A DNA stretch of 13,133 nucleotides from a virus. Within the stretch, counting starts at the first letter, position 1, and each line of letters begins with the position of its first letter. This document shows positions 929-13,133 of the stretch, piece by piece. The position numbers were made by a program, and so were the translations under genes. The stretch is taken from IMG/VR virus record IMGVR_UViG_3300045988_162215, one strand, 5' to 3'. Under the pieces are notes generated by a model that worked only from the letters and a program-made list of their open reading frames with translations, did not search any database and was not told the origin of the DNA.

Positions 929-1111
929 TTATCTGACCTCCTCATCGCAGCCATCTGCATCATAATATTCAACTTCCTCGTTAATTATTACGCCAGGTCC
1001 ATATCCATCTACTACAATGCAAGATCCAACCTCTCCAAGCATTGCTTCTGTGGTAATTTTTTTCATCATTTTGAAATCTGAAAGATAAACTGAATAAGTA
1101 AATATAAACAT
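929..1111 (-). CDS. hypothetical small acidic protein (60 aa)
   Basis: ATG 1111..1109 preceded by GGAAAGGAAG at 9-nt spacing. The track ORF began at an upstream TTG. The stop abuts the next gene. Confidence 0.6.
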   Translation of the reverse strand: MFIFTYSVYLSDFKMMKKITTEAMLGEVGSCIVVDGYGPGVIINEEVEYYDADGCDEEVR

Positions 1112-1173
1112 AATTATCAACTTCCTTTCCTTATTTTCTATATATATTATATAATAATTTTTATAAAAAATAA

Positions 1174-1194
1174 AGAGAGTTGTTACAACTCTCT
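1174..1194 (-). terminator. intrinsic terminator hairpin (AGAGAGTTGT/ACAACTCTCT) followed by UUAUUUUUU on minus strand
   Basis: Inverted repeat overlapping the stop of 1193..1444, then a T-run (rc of AAAAAATAA 1165-1173). Confidence 0.55.
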
Positions 1195-1444
1195 ATTGTT
1201 TATTATCAATTTTTATTACTTCACATGTTTCATATAAAAGATAACCAGTAAACAACACAAATAAAGGATACTCTAATGGCATAATAAAAAGAATATATAG
1301 TAAAGTTACTATCATACCAAGATTATCATATTTGTGCATCATGTCAAGTTTTCTATTTCTACAATATTCTGATGAAACAATAAAACAAATAGAAACAAAA
1401 GCTCCCACAAAAAGCATCAGAAAAAAATGCATTGATAAATACAT
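1193..1444 (-). CDS. small membrane protein (83 aa, two predicted TM helices)
   Basis: Hydrophobic ORF. Start probably ATG 1444..1442 with RBS GGTAGGTG (the track start was a GTG inside the RBS). Last gene of the kinase-like/SprT operon. Confidence 0.6.
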   Translation of the reverse strand: MYLSMHFFLMLFVGAFVSICFIVSSEYCRNRKLDMMHKYDNLGMIVTLLYILFIMPLEYPLFVLFTGYLLYETCEVIKIDNKQ

Positions 1445-3838: not shown

Positions 3839-4563
3839 TACTGATATTTCTCCTTTAATAAATCTGTTTCATTAAGTTGATATAATGCAGTCAACTCATC
3901 TATCTCTCTTGTTATATCAACGGCAGACTCATCTGCTTGAATCTGTTTTAACATTTTGATACTTTTAGATACTGACTTTAATTGAATTTGTTTTTCAAGT
4001 TTCTTCTTGGTCTTAGAGAGTAAATCAAGTATCTGCTTTGTTTGATCATCTGGATTGGGTATATTTGACAATTCACAGATACTTTTTCTAATCTTTTCCA
4101 ATTTTCTCTCTAGTTTATTCGTATTAAGCTCTATAAAAACCATAATTAAATAGAACACAATAATTATTAAATAGCCGATATTTCTCACGTAATTACCAAA
4201 ATTCCATTGTGATTTTGCAAATTTAGTAAAATCATCATGTGTTTTAATATTAGCATCATATTTTTCATTATATTTTTCTACTAAATCGTTATATTTCTCA
4301 ATAGCATATCCAGCTGAATAATCTTTATCTGTAAAATTATCGCTTTTTAAATAAACAACTGCTGATGCACTCCAAAGAAGACAGTTTGTAAGAAAAATAG
4401 TAATAAGAATTGCTATAATTACATAATTAGCAGTATCGTCTATTTTTTTAAGCATTTTGTTTATAAGCTTAATTTTATTTTTACCTAAGACACATATTAT
4501 TATTATAGATAAAGAAAAAAACATAGCAATAGAACAAAAGCCATGTAAAGCATATATCGTCAT
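3838..4563 (-). CDS. membrane protein with 3-4 TM helices and C-terminal coiled-coil/charged tail (241 aa)
   Basis: RBS AAGGTGAG 5 nt before ATG 4563..4561 (the track start was a GTG inside the RBS). Function unknown. Confidence 0.7.
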   Translation of the reverse strand: MTIYALHGFCSIAMFFSLSIIIICVLGKNKIKLINKMLKKIDDTANYVIIAILITIFLTNCLLWSASAVVYLKSDNFTDKDYSAGYAIEKYNDLVEKYNEKYDANIKTHDDFTKFAKSQWNFGNYVRNIGYLIIIVFYLIMVFIELNTNKLERKLEKIRKSICELSNIPNPDDQTKQILDLLSKTKKKLEKQIQLKSVSKSIKMLKQIQADESAVDITREIDELTALYQLNETDLLKEKYQ

Positions 4564-5892: not shown

Positions 5893-5921
5893 ATTATATC
5901 AAAAATATTAAAGTTTTTCAA
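5893..5921 (-). promoter_or_regulatory. leftward promoter (-35 TTGAAA, 17-bp spacer, extended -10 TGaTATAAT) for operon 5858->3488
   Basis: Read on the minus strand: TTGAAAaactttaatatttttgaTATAAT. Back-to-back with the rightward promoter. Confidence 0.6.
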
Positions 5922-5947
5922 ATTGGTATTGCTATGGCGGCCGCAAC

Positions 5948-5976
5948 TTGACAAACAAAAATAAGTTTGTTATAAT
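5948..5976 (+). promoter_or_regulatory. rightward consensus promoter TTGACA-17-TATAAT for plus-strand cluster
   Basis: TTGACA 5948-5953, spacer aacaaaaataagtttgt, TATAAT 5971-5976. About 95-nt leader to ATG 6076 with RBS GGAGGGAG. Confidence 0.7.
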
Positions 5977-7029: not shown

Positions 7030-7317
7030 ATGAAAGCTGTAACCACAGATAGACCAGTTAAGTATGAGCCGGGAGAATTTTTTCAAATTTCAAATAAAGG
7101 TTTGAAGGCAGCAGCTAGTCTTAATAATAATGGATTATTATTGTGGTTATATTTGTGTAAATTTAAGAGTGGTACTAAGTGGAAGATAAGCCCGCAGGCT
7201 ATCAGTAATGAACTGGGGATAACTTTAGATAAAGCTAAGAAGGTTTCAACTATTGGATACCAAGAATTAGTTGCAGCAAATTTTATTAGAGATGATGTGT
7301 TCTACGCGGACGGTTAA
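7030..7317 (+). CDS. winged-helix DNA-binding protein resembling RepA_N / phage replisome-organizer N-terminal domain (95 aa)
   Basis: Motif GLLLWLYLCKF...WKISPQAISNELGITLDKAKKVSTIGYQELVAANFI resembles the initiator winged helix of Firmicute plasmids and phages. RBS GGGGGT. Lies directly upstream of the iteron array. Confidence 0.6.
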   Translation: MKAVTTDRPVKYEPGEFFQISNKGLKAAASLNNNGLLLWLYLCKFKSGTKWKISPQAISNELGITLDKAKKVSTIGYQELVAANFIRDDVFYADG

Positions 7318-7320
7318 ATA

Positions 7321-7480
7321 AAAGTGCTAAAATGGCACTTTTTAGATACAAGGAGTCTATTAAAAAGTGCTTAATCGGCACTTTTATATACAAGGAAAAG
7401 TGCTTAATAAGCACTTTTTAATGAGCAGAAAGTGCTTAATTGGCACTTTTTTCTAAGGAAAAGTGCTTAATCGGCACTCT
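7321..7480. repeat. array of five 21-bp palindromic iterons AAAGTGCTTAAT(N)GGCACTTT at 7321, 7364, 7397, 7429, 7460 (spacing 43, 33, 32, 31 bp)
   Basis: Seen directly. Copy 3 (7397-7417) is a perfect palindrome AAAGTGCTTA-A-TAAGCACTTT; the others differ at 1-3 positions. Spacing is about three helical turns. Confidence 0.85.
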
Positions 7481-7520
7481 AATATATAAATAGAGAATAA
7501 ATACTAAATAAATAAATAGA
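7481..7520. other. 40-bp AT tract (4 G/C in 40) immediately after iterons; candidate DNA-unwinding element
   Basis: aatatataaatagagaataaatactaaataaataaataga. Confidence 0.5.
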
Positions 7521-7521
7521 C

Positions 7522-7578
7522 GGTATAAATAATCTTTACGTAGTTCGCTTCGCTCACTACTCCAAGATTATTTATACC
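7522..7578 (+). repeat. hairpin A: 15-bp stem GGTATAAATAATCTT/AAGATTATTTATACC, internal loop, 4-bp inner stem GTAG/CTAC, 13-nt loop TTCGCTTCGCTCA
   Basis: Perfect inverted repeat seen directly. Confidence 0.8.
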
Positions 7579-8639: not shown

Positions 8640-9008
8640 CTAAAAGAACTTGAAAAGATTGAACAACTCCGCCATAGGATCTGACTCTGACTTCTTCTTT
8701 ACCTTAGGCTTAGGCTTACTCTCCGCTGTATCCATTGCCTGAATAAAAAGCTCGATAAACTTCAACTTATCAGTCATGTCCTTTGTAATCTCATTTGCGT
8801 CTTTCTCTGAAATTTCAGCTCCAGTAATAGCTTCCACATAATCCAACAAATCAGCAATCAGATATTTTCTTGCATCTTCTACCTCTGTAGGATCAATCTT
8901 TCTCTTATCCTTGGCTGCGGCAACCGCATCGGCTTCCGCCTGCGCCATCTTGCTAATCTCTTCAACTGACTTTCCTTCTGCAATAAGTTCTGCTATTGTT
9001 TTACTCAT
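8640..9008 (-). CDS. acidic protein with basic/hydrophobic C-terminal tail (122 aa)
   Basis: RBS AGAAGAGG upstream of ATG 9008. Its own promoter is at 9048-9076. Confidence 0.7.
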   Translation of the reverse strand: MSKTIAELIAEGKSVEEISKMAQAEADAVAAAKDKRKIDPTEVEDARKYLIADLLDYVEAITGAEISEKDANEITKDMTDKLKFIELFIQAMDTAESKPKPKVKKKSESDPMAELFNLFKFF

Positions 9009-9047
9009 AGTCTATAACCTCTTCTTTCTATTTCATTTTCTATATAT

Positions 9048-9076
9048 ATTATATAATAATTTTTCAGAAGTGTCAA
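9048..9076 (-). promoter_or_regulatory. consensus promoter TTGACA-17-TATAAT (minus strand)
   Basis: Reverse complement of tgtcaa 9071-9076 and attata 9048-9053, spacer 17. Confidence 0.65.
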
Positions 9077-9205
9077 AGGCACGAAAGCATATACCAGTAG
9101 TAAAATTGTAATTAGCTGTAACTATATCTTTTCTATTGTTGCGGGTATTTGTTCGTTTTTATATGAGAATAAGAAAAAACGAAGCTAATTTACCTCCCCT
9201 ATATA

Positions 9206-9234
9206 ATTATATCAAAAATACGAAAAAATGTCAA
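9206..9234 (-). promoter_or_regulatory. orphan promoter TTGACA-17-TATAAT followed by SD GGGGAGGT with no start codon or ORF downstream
   Basis: Minus strand reads TTGACAttttttcgtatttttgaTATAATtatataGGGGAGGTaaattagcttcg. The nearest in-frame start is a non-canonical ATT giving an 18-aa ORF. Confidence 0.5.
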
Positions 9235-9369
9235 GAAAGATGCGCTGAGGCATTTATCAATAGAATCACTGTAATTCGATACAGTAAGCCATTTTTTATT
9301 CTGACGGATATTTTTACGTTTCAGATAGAAAACGAGCAAATTTACAACAAAAGTAAGTCAAACATCTAA

Positions 9370-9469
9370 TTTCGGGATCCGTATGGCGGTTTTCAGATTT
9401 CAAACAACCAGGAAAAAAAGCCATATAGGGTCTGGTCGTGGGAACTCGGCGTTGCCCGGTGGTCAACGC
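9370..9469 (-). ncRNA. candidate small RNA transcribed leftward from promoter 9476-9504; begins with GC hairpin GGCGTTG/CAACGCC
   Basis: Consensus promoter with no ORF of at least 40 aa and an RBS downstream over 460 nt. The transcript 5' end folds into the 9448-9470 hairpin. The 3' end is undefined. Confidence 0.25.
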
Positions 9470-9475
9470 CGCGAC

Positions 9476-9504
9476 ATTATACCACATTTTATGTGCTTTG
9501 TCAA
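9476..9504 (-). promoter_or_regulatory. consensus promoter TTGACA-17-TATAAT (minus strand) driving an ORF-less transcript
   Basis: tgtcaa 9499-9504 and attata 9476-9481 on the plus strand. Confidence 0.6.
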
Positions 9505-9547
9505 GTAAAAAAATAAAAAAATAGAGGAAAATTCCTCATTTTTTAAG
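9505..9547 (-). terminator. intrinsic terminator: 10-11-bp stem GGAAAATTCCT/AGGAATTTTCC, then UAUUUUUUUAUUUUUUU
   Basis: Inverted repeat 9516-9526 / 9537-9547 downstream of the stop of 9568..9960. Long T-run on the minus strand. Confidence 0.6.
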
Positions 9548-9567
9548 GAATTTTCCCCTAAAAACCT

Positions 9568-9960
9568 TTATTTCTTAGGTTTTCTCTGTTCAATTAAATC
9601 GATTTTGAACTTGCGACCATTGATTTCTAAAGAAATCAGCTTATTTTCCTTAATAATCTCAACCTTTTCGCCATAAATACTTTGCAAATTAGTTAAAATA
9701 TTATGGAAAACTTCTTTTTTTTCATCAGAAATCTTAACTGTCCTAGGCTTTGAATCCTTGCGTTTTTCCTGGGTAATACCATGATCAACTCTCTGTCCTT
9801 TGGTTTTCTCTTCCAACTCGACAACCTCTTCCATTGTAAACCCTTCGGGACACTCTTCCAACTCTTCACAGGGTTTATCCCACATTTCATGGCAAAGCAT
9901 TTTACCATTCTTACAAATAAGATTTCCGCAATCTTCACACAACTTGATATTCATATTCAC
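9568..9960 (-). CDS. protein with N-terminal Cys-rich zinc-ribbon (CEDCGNLICKNGKMLCHEMWDKPC) and charged C-terminal region (130 aa)
   Basis: RBS GAAAGGGG upstream of ATG 9960. Promoter at 9986-10014. Confidence 0.7.
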   Translation of the reverse strand: MNMNIKLCEDCGNLICKNGKMLCHEMWDKPCEELEECPEGFTMEEVVELEEKTKGQRVDHGITQEKRKDSKPRTVKISDEKKEVFHNILTNLQSIYGEKVEIIKENKLISLEINGRKFKIDLIEQRKPKK

Positions 9961-9985
9961 AACCCCTTTCTTTTACTGTACCTAT

Positions 9986-10014
9986 ATTATAACACAAGAG
10001 GTTGAGAATGTCAA
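9986..10014 (-). promoter_or_regulatory. consensus promoter TTGACA-17-TATAAT (minus strand)
   Basis: tgtcaa 10009-10014 and attata 9986-9991, spacer 17. Confidence 0.65.
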
Positions 10015-10024
10015 CCTTTAATTT

Positions 10025-10056
10025 GCGGTTTTCGGTGGGAGAATCCCACCGACCGC
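10025..10056. other. GC-rich hairpin GCGG-tttt-TCGGTGGGA-gaa-TCCCACCGA-CCGC between two minus-strand genes
   Basis: 9-bp perfect stem plus outer GCGG/CCGC. A T-run follows only on the plus strand (CACATTGTTTTT). It carries the 3' flank motif CGC-CACATT shared with the other GC hairpins. Confidence 0.4.
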
Positions 10057-10068
10057 ACATTGTTTTTA

Positions 10069-10467
10069 CTAGCCCGCGATATCCTCAGTATTAAGGGCGA
10101 AGGTCATCTTCTTACCATCTGGAATACGGCGAACCTTGTAAACCATAGATGGAAGTCTGTTTTCTTCCTTTGCTGGACCGGCAAGCTGTGTCATAAGTGC
10201 GACAATCTTGTTAAGCGAATACTCGCCATTAAAGGCATTCATAATCTCTGTACAAGTCATAGGCTTTGAATCCTCGAGCAAGTCAAGAATCATATTCTTG
10301 ATTTCTGCGTTCTCGGTCTGATTCTTAGACGGCTTACGGTTTGCATTCTTCTTGTTAAGAATAGCAATCTCCTTACGGCAAAAGTCCTTGATATCCTCGG
10401 ATACGCCATCAATAGCCATAATCATCTCAAAATACTGCTTCTTTGTTGTCTTGTTTGTTGTTGTCAT
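10069..10467 (-). CDS. Lys/Thr-rich N-term plus C-terminal winged-helix-like domain (132 aa); fed by four tandem promoters
   Basis: RBS AAAAGGGGT upstream of ATG 10467. Segment CTEIMNAF...KIVALMTQL...VYKVRR resembles wHTH. Product unknown. Confidence 0.7.
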   Translation of the reverse strand: MTTTNKTTKKQYFEMIMAIDGVSEDIKDFCRKEIAILNKKNANRKPSKNQTENAEIKNMILDLLEDSKPMTCTEIMNAFNGEYSLNKIVALMTQLAGPAKEENRLPSMVYKVRRIPDGKKMTFALNTEDIAG

Positions 10468-10516
10468 AAAACATACCCCTTTTCTTAATAAATTCTTAAC
10501 TCTTTGTTACATATAC

Positions 10517-10545
10517 ATTATAACATATTTTGTAAGGTTTGTCAA
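10517..10545 (-). promoter_or_regulatory. promoter Pm1 TTGACA-17-TATAAT immediately upstream of gene 10069..10467
   Basis: tgtcaa 10540-10545, attata 10517-10522. Confidence 0.65.
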
Positions 10546-10608
10546 GCATTTTTTTTATTATTTTCTTTTCGGTTTAGAACCTTTAATCTTCCTTGACCTT
10601 ACATACTT

Positions 10609-10637
10609 ATTATAACATATTTTTTAATGTTTGTCAA
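10609..10637 (-). promoter_or_regulatory. promoter Pm2 TTGACA-17-TATAAT (part of 175-bp tandem duplication)
   Basis: tgtcaa 10632-10637, attata 10609-10614. About 50 bp identical to the Pm3 copy. Confidence 0.6.
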
Positions 10638-10783
10638 TAGGTTTTTTAAGATTTTTAAGAAATAACAATGATTTTAGGCGGATATGGAATAAGGCTCAAC
10701 CAAAATTGCCAACTCATTATCCCTTTTATTATTGGTTTTTTATTTCCTTTATCATTGTTTTCTTAACTTTATCTTACATACTT

Positions 10784-10812
10784 ATTATAACATATTTTTT
10801 AATGTTTGTCAA
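10784..10812 (-). promoter_or_regulatory. promoter Pm3, exact duplicate of Pm2
   Basis: cttacatacttattataacatattttttaatgtttgtcaataggttttt occurs at 10598-10646 and again at 10773-10821. Confidence 0.6.
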
Positions 10813-10893
10813 TAGGTTTTTGAAAGTTTCTAAAATTTGTTTTCCTCACGACCGAGGTTGCTATTTTGTTTTCTTTCCTTACCTTGTAAATAC

Positions 10894-10922
10894 ATTATAA
10901 CAAAATATTTATAGAAAATCAA
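10894..10922 (-). promoter_or_regulatory. weaker promoter Pm4 (TTGATT-17-TATAAT)
   Basis: attata 10894-10899. The -35 is rc of aatcaa at 10917-10922. Confidence 0.35.
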
Positions 10923-10927
10923 TATCG

Positions 10928-10980
10928 GAAAATTGCACAAAATTCGGGATGTACAAGGTTAAAAAATTTGTGCAATTTTC
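10928..10980. repeat. inverted repeat GAAAATTGCACAAA ...25 nt... TTTGTGCAATTTTC
   Basis: 14-bp perfect arms at 10928-10941 and 10967-10980. Abuts the -35 of the plus-strand promoter at 10984. Confidence 0.7.
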
Positions 10981-10983
10981 CTA

Positions 10984-11013
10984 TTGACAAATGCCAGAGC
11001 TATGTGGTATAAT
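10984..11013 (+). promoter_or_regulatory. plus-strand promoter TTGACA-18-TATAAT firing rightward into GC hairpin 11019-11041
   Basis: TTGACA 10984-10989, TATAAT 11008-11013. Confidence 0.55.
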
Positions 11014-11046
11014 AGTTCGGCGTGCAAGGGGCGTGCACGCCGCGCC

Positions 11047-11075
11047 ATTATAACACATAATGAATTATTTGTCAA
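11047..11075 (-). promoter_or_regulatory. minus-strand promoter TTGACA-17-TATAAT; its transcript begins with hairpin 11019-11041 and runs through IR 10928-10980
   Basis: tgtcaa 11070-11075, attata 11047-11052. Confidence 0.55.
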
Positions 11076-11092
11076 CCCCTAAATTAAAAAAA

Positions 11093-11119
11093 TGTGGGCG
11101 AGTTTAGGCTCGCCGCACA
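11093..11119. terminator. bidirectional intrinsic terminator (TGTGGGCGAG/CTCGCCGCACA) flanked by AAAAAAA upstream and TTTTCGATTTCC downstream
   Basis: A-run 11085-11092 gives a U-run for the minus-strand gene 11133..11360. The T-rich 11120-11131 serves the plus-strand sRNA candidate. Confidence 0.65.
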
Positions 11120-11132
11120 TTTTCGATTTCCA

Positions 11133-11360
11133 CTAATCTTCAATGATTAACTTCGCTTTAAGTTTACGAATAGGTCTTTCTGAAAAATCACAAATAACTC
11201 CTTCTATAGCTCCGCTGTCAAGGTCAACAATATATGTATCATAATTATCAGCACATAACATACAAGGTTTATTATCATCTAAAAATGTAAAAACTTCACC
11301 ATTATCTAAATCTTCGCAACTTAAATATCCCTTAACTTCAATCTTTCCAATAATTTCCAT
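11133..11360 (-). CDS. hypothetical acidic Cys-containing protein (75 aa)
   Basis: RBS AAAGGTGA 5 nt before ATG 11360..11358 (the track start was an upstream GTG). Promoter at 11404-11432. Confidence 0.6.
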   Translation of the reverse strand: MEIIGKIEVKGYLSCEDLDNGEVFTFLDDNKPCMLCADNYDTYIVDLDSGAIEGVICDFSERPIRKLKAKLIIED

Positions 11361-11403
11361 TTTAATCACCTTTTTAACCTTTCTTTCTCTTGTTTATATA
11401 CTT

Positions 11404-11432
11404 ATTATACTATATTTATTATTATTTGTCAA
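11404..11432 (-). promoter_or_regulatory. consensus promoter TTGACA-17-TATAAT
   Basis: tgtcaa 11427-11432, attata 11404-11409. Confidence 0.65.
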
Positions 11433-11446
11433 GTATTTTTAGAAAA

Positions 11447-11466
11447 ATAGGCATTTCTGCCTATTC
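11447..11466 (-). terminator. terminator hairpin AATAGGCA-tttc-TGCCTATT, then UUUUCU on minus strand
   Basis: Overlaps the stop of 11461..11751. Directly upstream of the next promoter. Confidence 0.5.
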
Positions 11467-11751
11467 TTCAGAGATATTTGCGAAGGGCATCTTCGGACAA
11501 GGATAATCGTCAACCACTGATGAGCCACCATAAGTGGTTCGTACCATTGACACTCTCCACGCCACATCCGCAAGTCTATCAATACAACTTGGATAACTAC
11601 TCGTACACCAAATTTCTCCATTCTTACGAAAAATATCCTGATATGTGCCTTTAATTGTAGTTAAAAGACTAATCACATCTTCGATTTTCTGTTCCTCTTC
11701 TGGTGTCAAAGTAATTGTTTCAATACGTTTCTCGCCTGTAATAATTTCCAT
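11461..11751 (-). CDS. hypothetical protein (96 aa)
   Basis: RBS AGAGAGGT 7 nt before ATG 11751. Promoter at 11783-11811. Confidence 0.65.
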   Translation of the reverse strand: MEIITGEKRIETITLTPEEEQKIEDVISLLTTIKGTYQDIFRKNGEIWCTSSYPSCIDRLADVAWRVSMVRTTYGGSSVVDDYPCPKMPFANISEE

Positions 11752-11782
11752 ATAATTTACCTCTCTTTCACTTTCTATAATT

Positions 11783-11811
11783 ATTATATCATTATTATTT
11801 TAATTTGTCAA
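11783..11811 (-). promoter_or_regulatory. consensus promoter TTGACA-17-TATAAT (lies inside the 3' end of gene 11795..11998)
   Basis: tgtcaa 11806-11811, attata 11783-11788. Confidence 0.6.
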
Positions 11812-11998
11812 CATTTAATTCATAAATATTGTAATAAATTTTTGTTATCCAAGTATTTCTTATTATTCGCCAACATTTCCAAATAGGTCTTTGCCAACTT
11901 TTAAGATTAAAGCCTAAAATAAACAATGCCTTAAAATTTTTCCATGATTTTTCTTTAAGCCAATTATCTATTACTAAATACTGTGTTTTTGTTATCAT
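11795..11998 (-). CDS. Trp-rich basic small protein (67 aa)
   Basis: RBS AGAGAGGT 7 nt before ATG 11998. Promoter at 12024-12052. The 3' end overlaps the downstream promoter. Confidence 0.5.
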   Translation of the reverse strand: MITKTQYLVIDNWLKEKSWKNFKALFILGFNLKSWQRPIWKCWRIIRNTWITKIYYNIYELNVDKLK

Positions 11999-12023
11999 TC
12001 TTATTACCTCTCTTTCTACAATT

Positions 12024-12052
12024 ATTATATCACAGCTGGCTTACTTTGTCAA
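12024..12052 (-). promoter_or_regulatory. consensus promoter TTGACA-17-TATAAT
   Basis: tgtcaa 12047-12052, attata 12024-12029. Confidence 0.6.
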
Positions 12053-12205
12053 GCACTTTTTTATTGCGTATTCAACTGGCGAAACTGGATAAACACAAAC
12101 AACTAATTCTTGAAGCAATTGTGACGCTTGTTTTTTATTTCTAATAGCCTTTTTACTTTTTATATATTGAAAACCATTAGCAGTTTTTATTTTATAATAT
12201 TTCAT
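12041..12205 (-). CDS. small basic protein (54 aa, MKYYKIKTANGFQYIKSKKAIRNKKQ...), not in ORF track
   Basis: RBS AGTGAGGT 9 nt before ATG 12205..12203. Its own TTGACA-17-TATAAT promoter is at 12233-12261. The stop overlaps the downstream -35. Confidence 0.45.
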   Translation of the reverse strand: MKYYKIKTANGFQYIKSKKAIRNKKQASQLLQELVVCVYPVSPVEYAIKKCLTK

Positions 12206-12232
12206 TTCTTATCAACCTCACTTTCTATACCT

Positions 12233-12261
12233 ATTATACCACCGCTGACCTACTCTGTCAA
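12233..12261 (-). promoter_or_regulatory. consensus promoter TTGACA-17-TATAAT
   Basis: tgtcaa 12256-12261, attata 12233-12238. Confidence 0.6.
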
Positions 12262-12708
12262 AAGTAAATCAGCTAAAAAATCAATAATATTTTCTGCGGT
12301 CGGATCGACTGTTTCTCCCAAACTCCAACCCTTGCGAACCTTTGCGTTATCATCAAAAAGAATCTGATTTCCGCCATGCTTGCGTGTGCAGTTTGCTTTT
12401 GTTGTGCCATACTTCACAAGATGGATTTCATCAAAAGGGAAATCATATCGAGCAAGCCAATCTCTTTTTGCAGTTCTCACAACCTCGTCGAAGTCTTTTG
12501 TGGAATCTTTAGACAACCAAGATGTGACAACGATTCTATAACCGACACTCTTCAAACAACAGAGAAGAGAACCAAGCAAAGCCATATCCCAAAGTGGCTC
12601 AGCCATAATGTAAGGGCGCGGGTTCTCGTTGTGTAAATCCTCAAGCCAGCCCTCTACTCCATAGAAATTTGCGATTGTTCCATCCATGTCAAATACTAAT
12701 GTTTTCAT
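12250..12708 (-). CDS. HAD-superfamily 5'(3')-deoxyribonucleotidase (NT5C-like), 152 aa
   Basis: N-terminal motif I FDMDGT (DxDGT), motif II VVTSW, motif IV ILFDDN. Size and layout typical of phage NT5C-type nucleotidases. RBS AAGAGGT 7 nt before ATG 12708. Confidence 0.8.
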   Translation of the reverse strand: MKTLVFDMDGTIANFYGVEGWLEDLHNENPRPYIMAEPLWDMALLGSLLCCLKSVGYRIVVTSWLSKDSTKDFDEVVRTAKRDWLARYDFPFDEIHLVKYGTTKANCTRKHGGNQILFDDNAKVRKGWSLGETVDPTAENIIDFLADLLLTE

Positions 12709-12738
12709 ATTTTTTACCTCTTTCCTTATCTTTTCTTT

Positions 12739-12767
12739 ATTATAGCATGTTATTTGTTATTTGTCAA
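12739..12767 (-). promoter_or_regulatory. consensus promoter TTGACA-17-TATAAT
   Basis: tgtcaa 12762-12767, attata 12739-12744. Confidence 0.6.
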
Positions 12768-12774
12768 CTACTTT

Positions 12775-12909
12775 TTACCAGATAGTAATAGATTGTTTAG
12801 AATCATCATACTCCACAGCAGGCTCGCAAAAGTTGCCTTCGCTTTCTATATAGACTTCTGTATCTGATGGATATTCTTGTAATATTTCAATTAAATCTTC
12901 AACTGTCAT
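12775..12909 (-). CDS. small acidic protein (44 aa, MTVEDLIEILQEYPSDTEVYIESEGNFCEPAVEYDDSKQSITIW), not in ORF track
   Basis: RBS AGAGAGGT 7 nt before ATG 12909..12907. Promoter at 12945-12973. Confidence 0.45.
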   Translation of the reverse strand: MTVEDLIEILQEYPSDTEVYIESEGNFCEPAVEYDDSKQSITIW

Positions 12910-12944
12910 ATTTTTTACCTCTCTTTCCTTTACCTTATATACAC

Positions 12945-12973
12945 ATTATACATGATAGATTTTAATTTGTCAA
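12945..12973 (-). promoter_or_regulatory. consensus promoter TTGACA-17-TATAAT
   Basis: tgtcaa 12968-12973, attata 12945-12950. Confidence 0.6.
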
Positions 12974-13017
12974 GCATTTTGGGATAAAAAAATAAAAAAA
13001 TTTTTTCAAAAAAACTC

Positions 13018-13046
13018 TTGACAAAAAGCCGGGACTATGATATACT
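13018..13046 (+). promoter_or_regulatory. plus-strand promoter TTGACA-17-TATACT firing into GC hairpin 13054-13080
   Basis: Homologous in position and sequence to the 10984-11013 promoter (shared ...TATAmTrGAAGTTCGGCG). Confidence 0.5.
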
Positions 13047-13053
13047 GGAAGTT

Positions 13054-13080
13054 CGGCGCGCTGCGATCCATGGCGCGCCG
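13054..13080. repeat. GC hairpin CGGCGCGC-tgcgatccatg-GCGCGCCG (homolog of hairpin 11019-11041 with a different stem sequence)
   Basis: 8-bp perfect stem. Flanked by TTCGGCG on the 5' side and CGCCAATTATAACAC on the 3' side, as at 11019-11041. Confidence 0.75.
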
Positions 13081-13083
13081 CCA

Positions 13084-13112
13084 ATTATAACACAAAAATC
13101 AATTTTTGTCAA
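13084..13112 (-). promoter_or_regulatory. minus-strand promoter TTGACA-17-TATAAT convergent with 13018-13046
   Basis: tgtcaa 13107-13112, attata 13084-13089. Its transcript starts in the GC hairpin. Confidence 0.55.
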
Positions 13113-13133
13113 GCACTTTTTTCAAAAAAAAAT

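Follow-up and report, generated by a model that had tools for sequence, protein, structure and literature searches.

Near the right-hand edge of a 13,133-nt stretch of viral DNA (IMG/VR record IMGVR_UViG_3300045988_162215; this whole stretch is called the window here), two strong promoters point towards each other across a short perfect hairpin, among genes that all lie on one strand. What is a promoter directed against the genes doing there, and is the hairpin at its foot a real structure or a chance palindrome? The initial annotation described the module, together with a similar one further to the left, as convergent consensus promoters around a perfect G+C hairpin, and this description holds for both copies (copy 1, 10984-11075; copy 2, 13018-13112). 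In the following, promoters that point with the genes are termed forward and those that point against the gene array backward or antisense.

The window has a G+C content of 32.6% and resembles a phage early region. Between 9048 and 13112 it carries 15 perfect TTGACA-17-TATAAT promoters on the minus strand, most of them with a TG extension and with small minus-strand ORFs behind them; all genes neighbouring copy 2 lie on this strand. Strong plus-strand promoters are limited in this interval to two (10984-11013 and 13018-13046). Each of them opposes a perfect minus-strand promoter (11075-11047 and 13112-13084, respectively) across a perfect G+C hairpin. The entire window contains five perfect G+C-rich hairpins of at least 8 bp, three of which begin 3-7 nt past the -10 box of a consensus promoter. 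For the proteins of the window, comparison with PHROGs was uninformative as to function. The parts of both copies and of a third unit are as follows.

13018..13046, plus strand: backward (antisense) promoter of copy 2, TTGACA-17-TATACT (-35 box 13018-13023, -10 box 13041-13046), 11/12 hexamer match, TG before the -10 box
13047..13053, plus strand: initial transcribed stretch of copy 2, GGAAGTT, 7 nt; a spacing of 7-8 nt is common to 83/109 antisense units
13054..13080, no strand assigned: hairpin of copy 2, 27 nt, CGGCGCGC (13054-13061) / loop TGCGATCCATG, 11 nt / GCGCGCCG (13073-13080)
13084..13112, minus strand: forward promoter of copy 2, TTGACA-17-TATAAT (-35 box 13112-13107, -10 box 13089-13084), 12/12
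13113..13133, no strand assigned: A/T-rich stretch upstream of the copy 2 forward promoter, and the A-run that opens the preceding terminator
12945..12973, minus strand: next-gene promoter (gene 12775-12909); it and the antisense promoter of copy 2 stand back to back, with their -35 boxes 44 nt apart
10984..11013, plus strand: antisense promoter of copy 1, TTGACA-18-TATAAT, 12/12, 18-nt spacer
11018..11042, no strand assigned: hairpin of copy 1, 25 nt, 9 bp (11018-11026/11034-11042), CGGCGTGCA / AGGGGCG (7 nt) / TGCACGCCG
11047..11075, minus strand: forward promoter of copy 1, 12/12, 4 nt (GGCG) off the stem
11093..11123, minus strand: terminator of the preceding gene 11133-11369, A-run before and T-run after
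10933..10975, no strand assigned: TTGCACAAA...TTTGTGCAA, an inverted repeat flanked by the antisense promoter of copy 1 and by 10922-10894, the promoter of the next gene
9447..9504, minus strand: third unit, forward promoter 9504-9476, GTCG, hairpin CGGCGTTG/CAACGCCG (9471-9447)

In copy 2 the predicted plus-strand start lies at about 13050-13053, 0-3 nt ahead of the stem. The forward promoter of this copy is located 3 nt (TGG) off the other side of the stem, and its predicted start falls in the stem at about 13078. The antisense promoter of copy 2 is conserved in L044, L121, L177 and L202 (L numbers designate the compared sequences). In relatives, the stretch at 13113-13133 continues as AAAATAGGGTGCGATTTCTCGCACCC; past the window edge they carry a minus-strand terminator and then tRNA-Trp, likewise on the minus strand. 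Some 170-300 nt past this edge, at 1104-1240 (minus strand) of L121, an Rfam tRNA model matches with 45 bits over 137 nt and ARAGORN makes no tRNA call; possibly an insertion or intron interrupts a tRNA gene here, beside tRNA-Trp.

The antisense promoter of copy 1 faces gene 11133-11369 and is 100% identical, spacer included, in 4-5 relatives (L044, L126, L174, L202), among which the loop and the spacer of the forward promoter vary. The inverted repeat at 10933-10975 places a GTGCAA box upstream of each of its flanking promoters. Both boxes (10941, 10967) are present in copy 1, and copy 2 has a degenerate version. The back-to-back partner promoters are 10922-10894 for copy 1 and 12973-12945 for copy 2. 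Downstream of the forward promoters of both copies about 100 nt without an ORF are followed by another promoter. The third unit has no antisense promoter; about 240 nt without an ORF follow it, and a homologue exists in L202.

The promoter array is unusual in its own right. Perfect 12/12 TTGACA-17-TATAAT promoters reach an extreme density: 9048-13112 has 15 of them in 4 kb and L156 about 29 in 13.8 kb, so that each small gene there has roughly one of its own. About 670 bp of the window (10468-11132) hold five minus-strand promoters, four perfect and one 10/12, with -35 boxes at 10545, 10637, 10812, 10922 and 11075, and contain no minus-strand ORF of at least 40 aa; 10592-10658 and 10767-10833 are 91% identical. 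These are promoter-only units, and their predicted transcripts appear to be non-coding. Where gene direction switches, at 5893-5976, two promoters stand back to back (minus strand 5921-5893, 11/12; plus strand 5948-5976, 12/12), and this pair has no hairpin.

According to the initial annotation, promoter boxes and flanks are conserved between the two copies and the stems are entirely different. Boxes and flanks are indeed shared: the copies align with 76% column identity and have AGTTCGGCG and GCC(A)ATTATAACAC in common. The apparent difference of the stems, in contrast, arose from a comparison that was one base out of register. In register, CGGCGTGC/GCACGCCG of copy 1 stands against CGGCGCGC/GCGCGCCG of copy 2 with 7/8 pairs identical. 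A single compensatory pair distinguishes the copies (T-A versus C-G); at the ninth pair, copy 1 has A-T where copy 2 has T.G. The word GTTCGGCGYGC occurs exactly twice in the window; with two mismatches, 5 matches compare with 0.74 expected. Single-sequence folding of the window hairpins is modestly better than that of shuffled sequences (z -1.3 to -3.1). Since 7/8 pairs are identical and the folding scores are modest, the two window copies alone prove little.

The comparative evidence comes from relatives. Megablast of 9000-13133 against phage records gave no match, and a hairpin-only pattern applied to viral sequences was flooded by chance matches in G+C-rich phages. IMG/VR relatives were found by a pattern consisting of the hairpin and an adjacent -10 box; with the -35 box added, 93 metagenome stretches from rumen and human gut were obtained. 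Together with 12 viral stretches these form the cassette family as covered by the pattern scans. On about 100 related contigs, taken from samples of different hosts and continents, there are 190 distinct promoter-plus-hairpin units. Over the aligned parts, L044 and the window are 85-98% identical. The annotation had called for a search for further copies, and had suggested a dispersed cassette while doubting a recent segmental duplication. The third unit at 9447-9504 and the 190 units on about 100 contigs provide such copies. Three hairpin units are found in the window and 3-5 per 12-14 kb in L121, L202 and L156, as expected for a dispersed multi-copy cassette, and so many distinct units in both rumen and human-gut samples do not derive from one recent duplication.

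The carriers are large uncultured gut and rumen phages related to phAss-1. A scan of bacterial genomes yielded no isolate or host, because the matches were 8 metagenome-assembled contigs only; these were binned mostly to Clostridia, which are probably the hosts of the cassette phages. In a sensitive blastn search copy 1 matches phAss-1 (OQ749652) over 132 nt. This link is strengthened at the protein level: the 152-aa neighbour and the phAss-1 protein beside that phage's own module share 54% identity. phAss-1 contains one convergent pair and one unit of promoter, hairpin and U-run (at 129144). This phage, from the human gut and 136 kb in size, belongs to the 'code 15' clade; it has 36 tRNA genes, and its late genes read TAG as glutamine (PMC10607447). 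Such phages have to date been described only by their genes and genetic code (PMC10607447), and neither promoters nor hairpins, terminators or repeats came up in a term search of that paper.

To judge the hairpin independently of the pattern that found it, we took a census of 1128 near-perfect promoters in the window and 91 related loci, and promoters carrying the searched hairpin were removed from the comparison of antisense and forward promoters to avoid circularity. A strong hairpin falls within the first 46 nt in 69% of the 124 antisense promoters left (G+C 0.55), compared with 5% of 830 forward promoters (G+C 0.33). In 86 G+C-rich regions past antisense promoters, namely those not found via the hairpin pattern, a perfect stem of at least 7 bp occurs in 69%, versus 1.2% of shuffles. 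This is the unbiased stem test, since the alignment of 55 units was selected for perfect stems. In that selected alignment 7/8 pairs change on both sides, the covariation sought by the annotation in a larger alignment, and 98.9% of cells are paired versus 22-49% in slid registers. The antisense units alone comprise 53 different 5' arms of the stem (e.g. CGGCGCGC, CCGGCCGT, CCGGGCGCG, CGGGGCGCC, GCCCGCGC and TGGCGCGCTGT). Thus, pairing is kept while the sequence changes, which bears out the view that the element is functional in appearance and no chance palindrome. A small-scale example is L126, where A-T replaces the T-A stem pair of copy 1 that other close relatives keep. Because of the unbiased stem enrichment, the covariation and this exchange in L126, the hairpin structure is real. 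Which molecule is selected is another matter. Neither strand has an excess of G.U over A.C pairs (36 vs 28; 2 vs 2), and hence the pairs do not tell which RNA, or whether RNA or DNA, is under selection. The loop motif GGRYCGU was oriented inconsistently with respect to the promoter.

The annotation regarded the convergent pair as the conserved module. In most relatives, however, there is only one promoter, directed backward against the gene array, and the conserved core is this backward promoter at 7-8 nt from a hairpin of usually 27 nt. Early genes are organised in one-directional arrays (e.g. L156) in which nearly every gene has its own 12/12 sigma-A-type promoter. Read along the gene strand, the order is preceding gene, terminator, GG, hairpin, AATTTTCC, and then the -10 and the -35 box of the backward promoter; checks in L156 and L131 confirmed this arrangement of the genes, and both window copies conform to it. 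In 77% of the antisense units a canonical terminator, that of the preceding gene, lies directly next to the unit. The total hairpin length is 27 nt in 70/109 antisense units, composed as 8+11+8, 9+9+9 or 10+7+10, and 83 of the 109 have 7 or 8 nt between -10 box and stem. Promoters in the cassettes match the hexamers at 12/12 or 11/12 positions, with TG extension and A/T-rich upstream sequence.

Upstream of the backward promoter, 85 antisense units give the consensus TTGCACAAATTT-GGGA-N14-AAATTTGTGCAAATTTNCTC-TTGACA. The promoter of the next gene stands back to back with it, 40-69 nt away, in 58/99 antisense units, and an inverted repeat of GTGCAA boxes common to both promoters lies between them; AAATTTGTGCAA may be a factor-binding sequence. 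A second, forward promoter on the opposite side of the stem, at a distance of 2-4 nt, is confined to some lineages (types A-C), including that of the window, and the convergent -10 boxes are then 33-37 nt apart. In 'type D' relatives the backward promoter lacks its -10 box, and a forward promoter is followed by the hairpin and AGUUUUUUG. Genes after the cassette fall into 46 clusters from 78 proteins, and those before it into 64 clusters from 87 proteins. With such diverse flanking families the cassette is generic; a gene-specific device was ruled out, since neither the following nor the preceding genes form one family.

Gene cassettes are gained and lost at these promoters. The homology of the window to L044, L126, L174 and L202 breaks off precisely at 11075, where the minus-strand promoter of copy 1 has its -35 box. 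Two gene cassettes of the window (11076-11403 and 11792-12217), located between direct repeats of promoter plus leader, are missing from L174, and L044 has an extra gene at 421-823 between duplicates of window 12906-12990. Modular shuffling at promoters is therefore visible. The annotation had suggested that the modules could promote recombination between copies, and had asked whether rearrangements end at them. The stop of homology to four relatives at 11075 agrees with this, but breakpoints occur also at ordinary promoters without a hairpin, which leaves the hairpin unsupported as a driver of recombination.

Among described elements, the T4-type PeSLs (PMC2839356, PMC4122927) are the nearest kind. 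Like the cassette, they combine a strong host-type early promoter with a G+C stem-loop, occur in multiple copies between small genes of unknown function, and accompany the gain and loss of repeat-flanked gene cassettes. The comparison with PeSLs made by the annotation is to this extent justified. It fails for the backward promoter, the fixed spacing and the back-to-back partner. In a PeSL a ribosome-binding site and a gene come after the forward promoter, and the stem-loop is a terminator (PMC2839356). The PeSL promoter points with the genes, whereas the conserved promoter of the cassette points backward without a gene; the hairpin spacing of the cassette is fixed and its back-to-back partner promoter carries GTGCAA boxes. 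PeSLs are found in hyperplastic regions of T4-like myoviruses, and the cassette in phAss-1-like phages, i.e. in another phage group and host phylum. No Rfam covariance model matched the modules, either in the window (E <= 1) or in L156, L202, L131 and L121 (E <= 0.1). As far as we found, the cassette family is undescribed; it is a new variation on the theme of promoter plus stem-loop.

Neither window copy combines a loop of 3-8 nt with a U-tract directly after it, as an intrinsic terminator does. In copy 1 the loop has 7 nt, in copy 2 it has 11 nt; on the minus strand the stems are followed by AACUAUUAUA and AACUUCCAGU, on the plus strand by CGCCAUUAUA and CCAAUUAUAA, and a terminator scan of the window called neither hairpin. 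Type D relatives do show this combination.

What, then, might the hairpin do at the start of a backward transcript? Our preferred reading, held tentatively and rated slightly below an even chance, is that it forms the 5'-terminal stem-loop of short non-coding transcripts and that the cassette is an antisense or insulating boundary between early transcription units. We infer this function from sequence comparison. From either promoter, transcription is predicted to start at the base of the stem and to leave no more than 2 nt unpaired; with the start set at the 7th nt after the -10 box, 103/109 antisense units have predicted starts with at most 2 unpaired 5' nt. It is these predicted starts that lead us to consider the hairpin 5'-terminal. 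BsRppH needs at least 2 unpaired 5' nt and prefers 3 or more (PMC3997798). In Firmicutes, a 5'-terminal stem-loop would thus be expected to block 5'-end-dependent decay by RppH and RNase J1. The backward transcript would then be a stabilised non-coding antisense RNA that enters the terminator and the 3' end of the preceding gene.

Forward promoters have their predicted start 3-5 nt into the stem, and the RNA hairpin is shorter as a result. For the window copies, where this start lies 2-3 nt into the stem, a flush hairpin of 7 bp would still be present on the forward transcripts. Because the convergent -10 boxes are only 33-37 nt apart, the two promoters would be too close for simultaneous occupancy by two polymerases. 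The hairpin may in addition be terminator-like on the gene strand in some relatives. Taken together, the cassette could insulate the next, separately controlled gene from upstream read-through, or damp the upstream gene. A terminator-like stop within 260 nt is present in 39/103 antisense units (38%), with a median predicted length of about 108 nt. Most antisense RNAs hence have no defined 3' end, as only 38% have a nearby stop. For copy 1 the first stop in the antisense direction is the terminator at 11093-11123, before the coding region; it may work both ways because an A-run precedes and a T-run follows it. The undefined 3' ends and the lack of strand bias among the wobble pairs weaken our reading. 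Two further observations speak against a stabilising role. In type D, forward promoter, hairpin and AGUUUUUUG look like immediate termination. Furthermore, as 95% of the forward early promoters lack a hairpin, early transcripts have no general need of stabilisation.

Several other explanations have to be weighed against this antisense or boundary function. That the hairpins are chance palindromes, or a single recent duplication without function, has a practically negligible probability: the weak folding scores and the single differing stem pair of the window copies would fit, but about 190 distinct units and the enrichment over shuffles and over forward promoters do not, and the comparative data already refute it. 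An unlikely but sensible proposal is a promoter-terminator cassette in the manner of PeSLs, which would isolate gene cassettes and supply patches of homology for shuffling; its hairpin would stop read-through on the gene strand, and its forward promoter would restart transcription from inside the stem. The breakpoint at 11075 shared with four relatives, the segments absent from L174 and the additional gene of L044 argue for it, as do the gene-strand U-run after the hairpin in type D units and phAss-1 and the stem-loop just past the -10 box in some PeSL subclasses (PMC2839356). The most conserved partner of the hairpin, however, is a backward promoter that PeSLs lack, and 77% of the units are already preceded by a canonical terminator. 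Furthermore, the minus-strand tails after the stem in the window are not U-rich, loops of 9-11 nt are long for intrinsic terminators, and hairpin-free promoters serve as breakpoints as well.

The short hairpin RNA could itself be the product, an abundant G+C hairpin of about 30-45 nt that would act by binding or titrating a factor of host or phage, for instance a nuclease or defence sensor. Type D units consist of promoter, hairpin and U-run and nothing more, the phAss-1 unit at 129144 is alike, the hairpin length of 27 nt is constant, loops are semi-conserved within subfamilies, and each genome has several copies. We nonetheless find this very doubtful, because 53 different stems with variable loops make one specific partner unlikely, most units have no U-run past the hairpin in the direction of the promoter, and Rfam gave no match. 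Highly unlikely, finally, is an element that acts purely at the DNA level, whether as operator of a dimeric protein, as cruciform, or as G+C clamp trapping RNA polymerase at two mutually exclusive promoters; a protein roadblock would have no role for RNA. Perfect Watson-Crick stems made almost entirely of G and C, wobble pairs without strand bias and the fixed geometry (27-nt hairpin, 33-37 nt between convergent -10 boxes) are compatible with it. On the other hand, covariation over many unrelated stems speaks against sequence-specific recognition by a protein, a G+C clamp needs no palindrome, and stems of 8-9 bp with loops of 9-11 nt extrude poorly as cruciforms. Of further candidates, a replication origin or primer role is unlikely given 3-5 copies per 12-14 kb. 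A CRISPR-repeat mimic was set aside from the sequence. So was a tRNA-like minihelix, as conservation does not extend to the CCA behind the stem, and likewise a small ORF from the ATG in the copy 2 loop (an ATG ORF is absent in other types).

Face-to-face promoters as such have precedents. Coliphages 186 and P2 use them in a single lysis/lysogeny switch with coding transcripts on both sides. They resemble the cassette in having strong convergent promoters close enough to interfere. The cassette, unlike these switches, is repeated, has no gene directly past the hairpin, and can dispense with the second promoter in most relatives. The sar RNA of P22 is transcribed from an antisense promoter past a gene into the 3' end of that gene, and two promoters converge there. 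Lambda oop RNA (PMC5869508) likewise shares with the cassette a constitutive-looking promoter just past a gene, directed into its 3' end. Both oop and sar are single-copy with a defined terminator, whereas the cassette has several copies per genome, diverse targets and mostly no defined 3' end, and adds a 5' hairpin flush with the predicted start. Stabilising 5'-terminal stem-loops are described for ompA and papA of E. coli and for aprE of B. subtilis (PMC3997798). With these the cassette has in common a stable hairpin 0-2 nt from the predicted 5' end. Known stabilisers lead coding mRNAs, however, and the cassette hairpin heads mostly predicted non-coding antisense RNAs and is common to two convergent promoters.

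In the terminal redundancy of Bacillus phage SPO1, a host-takeover module, there are similarly small early genes, each with a strong sigma-A promoter. Here, a perfect stem of 6 bp or more starts 9-10 nt after the -10 box at 4/16 promoter-like sites, again near the predicted 5' end. All SPO1 hairpin promoters point with the genes, convergent or back-to-back pairs are absent, and the sequences differ from the cassette. In the SPO1 sequence 1-16000 (L237) the hairpin sites start at 4397, 5363 and 6740 (plus strand) and 9529 (minus strand); the perfect stems are 6-7 bp long, three of them G+C-rich, and two continue with a CAGTACC(A/T)AGA tail.

phAss-1-like phages are abundant in human-gut and rumen samples and have no cultured host. 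For these phages the cassette offers a handle on early transcription, namely on a promoter class with GTGCAA boxes, on backward transcription starting with a hairpin, and on mobile, promoter-flanked gene cassettes. If the antisense or insulator reading is true, it would also constitute a compact natural part for Firmicutes, comprising consensus promoter, 5' cap hairpin and boundary, and a Gram-positive counterpart of the T4 PeSL. A more far-reaching proposal, which we rate as quite unlikely, is that backward promoters, GTGCAA boxes and flush 5' hairpins make up a dedicated, timed antisense system, present several times over in the early region, that fences in or silences chosen early (host-takeover) genes of TAG-recoding phages, or that the hairpin RNAs are abundant decoys against a host nuclease or defence sensor. 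If true, either would represent a regulatory layer not described for any phage.

A further group of hairpins is found elsewhere in the window. At 7320-7530, directly after the plus-strand gene 7030-7317, hairpin AAAAGTGCTTAATNGGCACTTTT occurs in five tandem copies with a period of about 32 nt, followed by an A/T-rich stretch; TRF reports 3.6 copies with 80% match at 7363-7478. This array looks like replication-origin iterons or an operator array.
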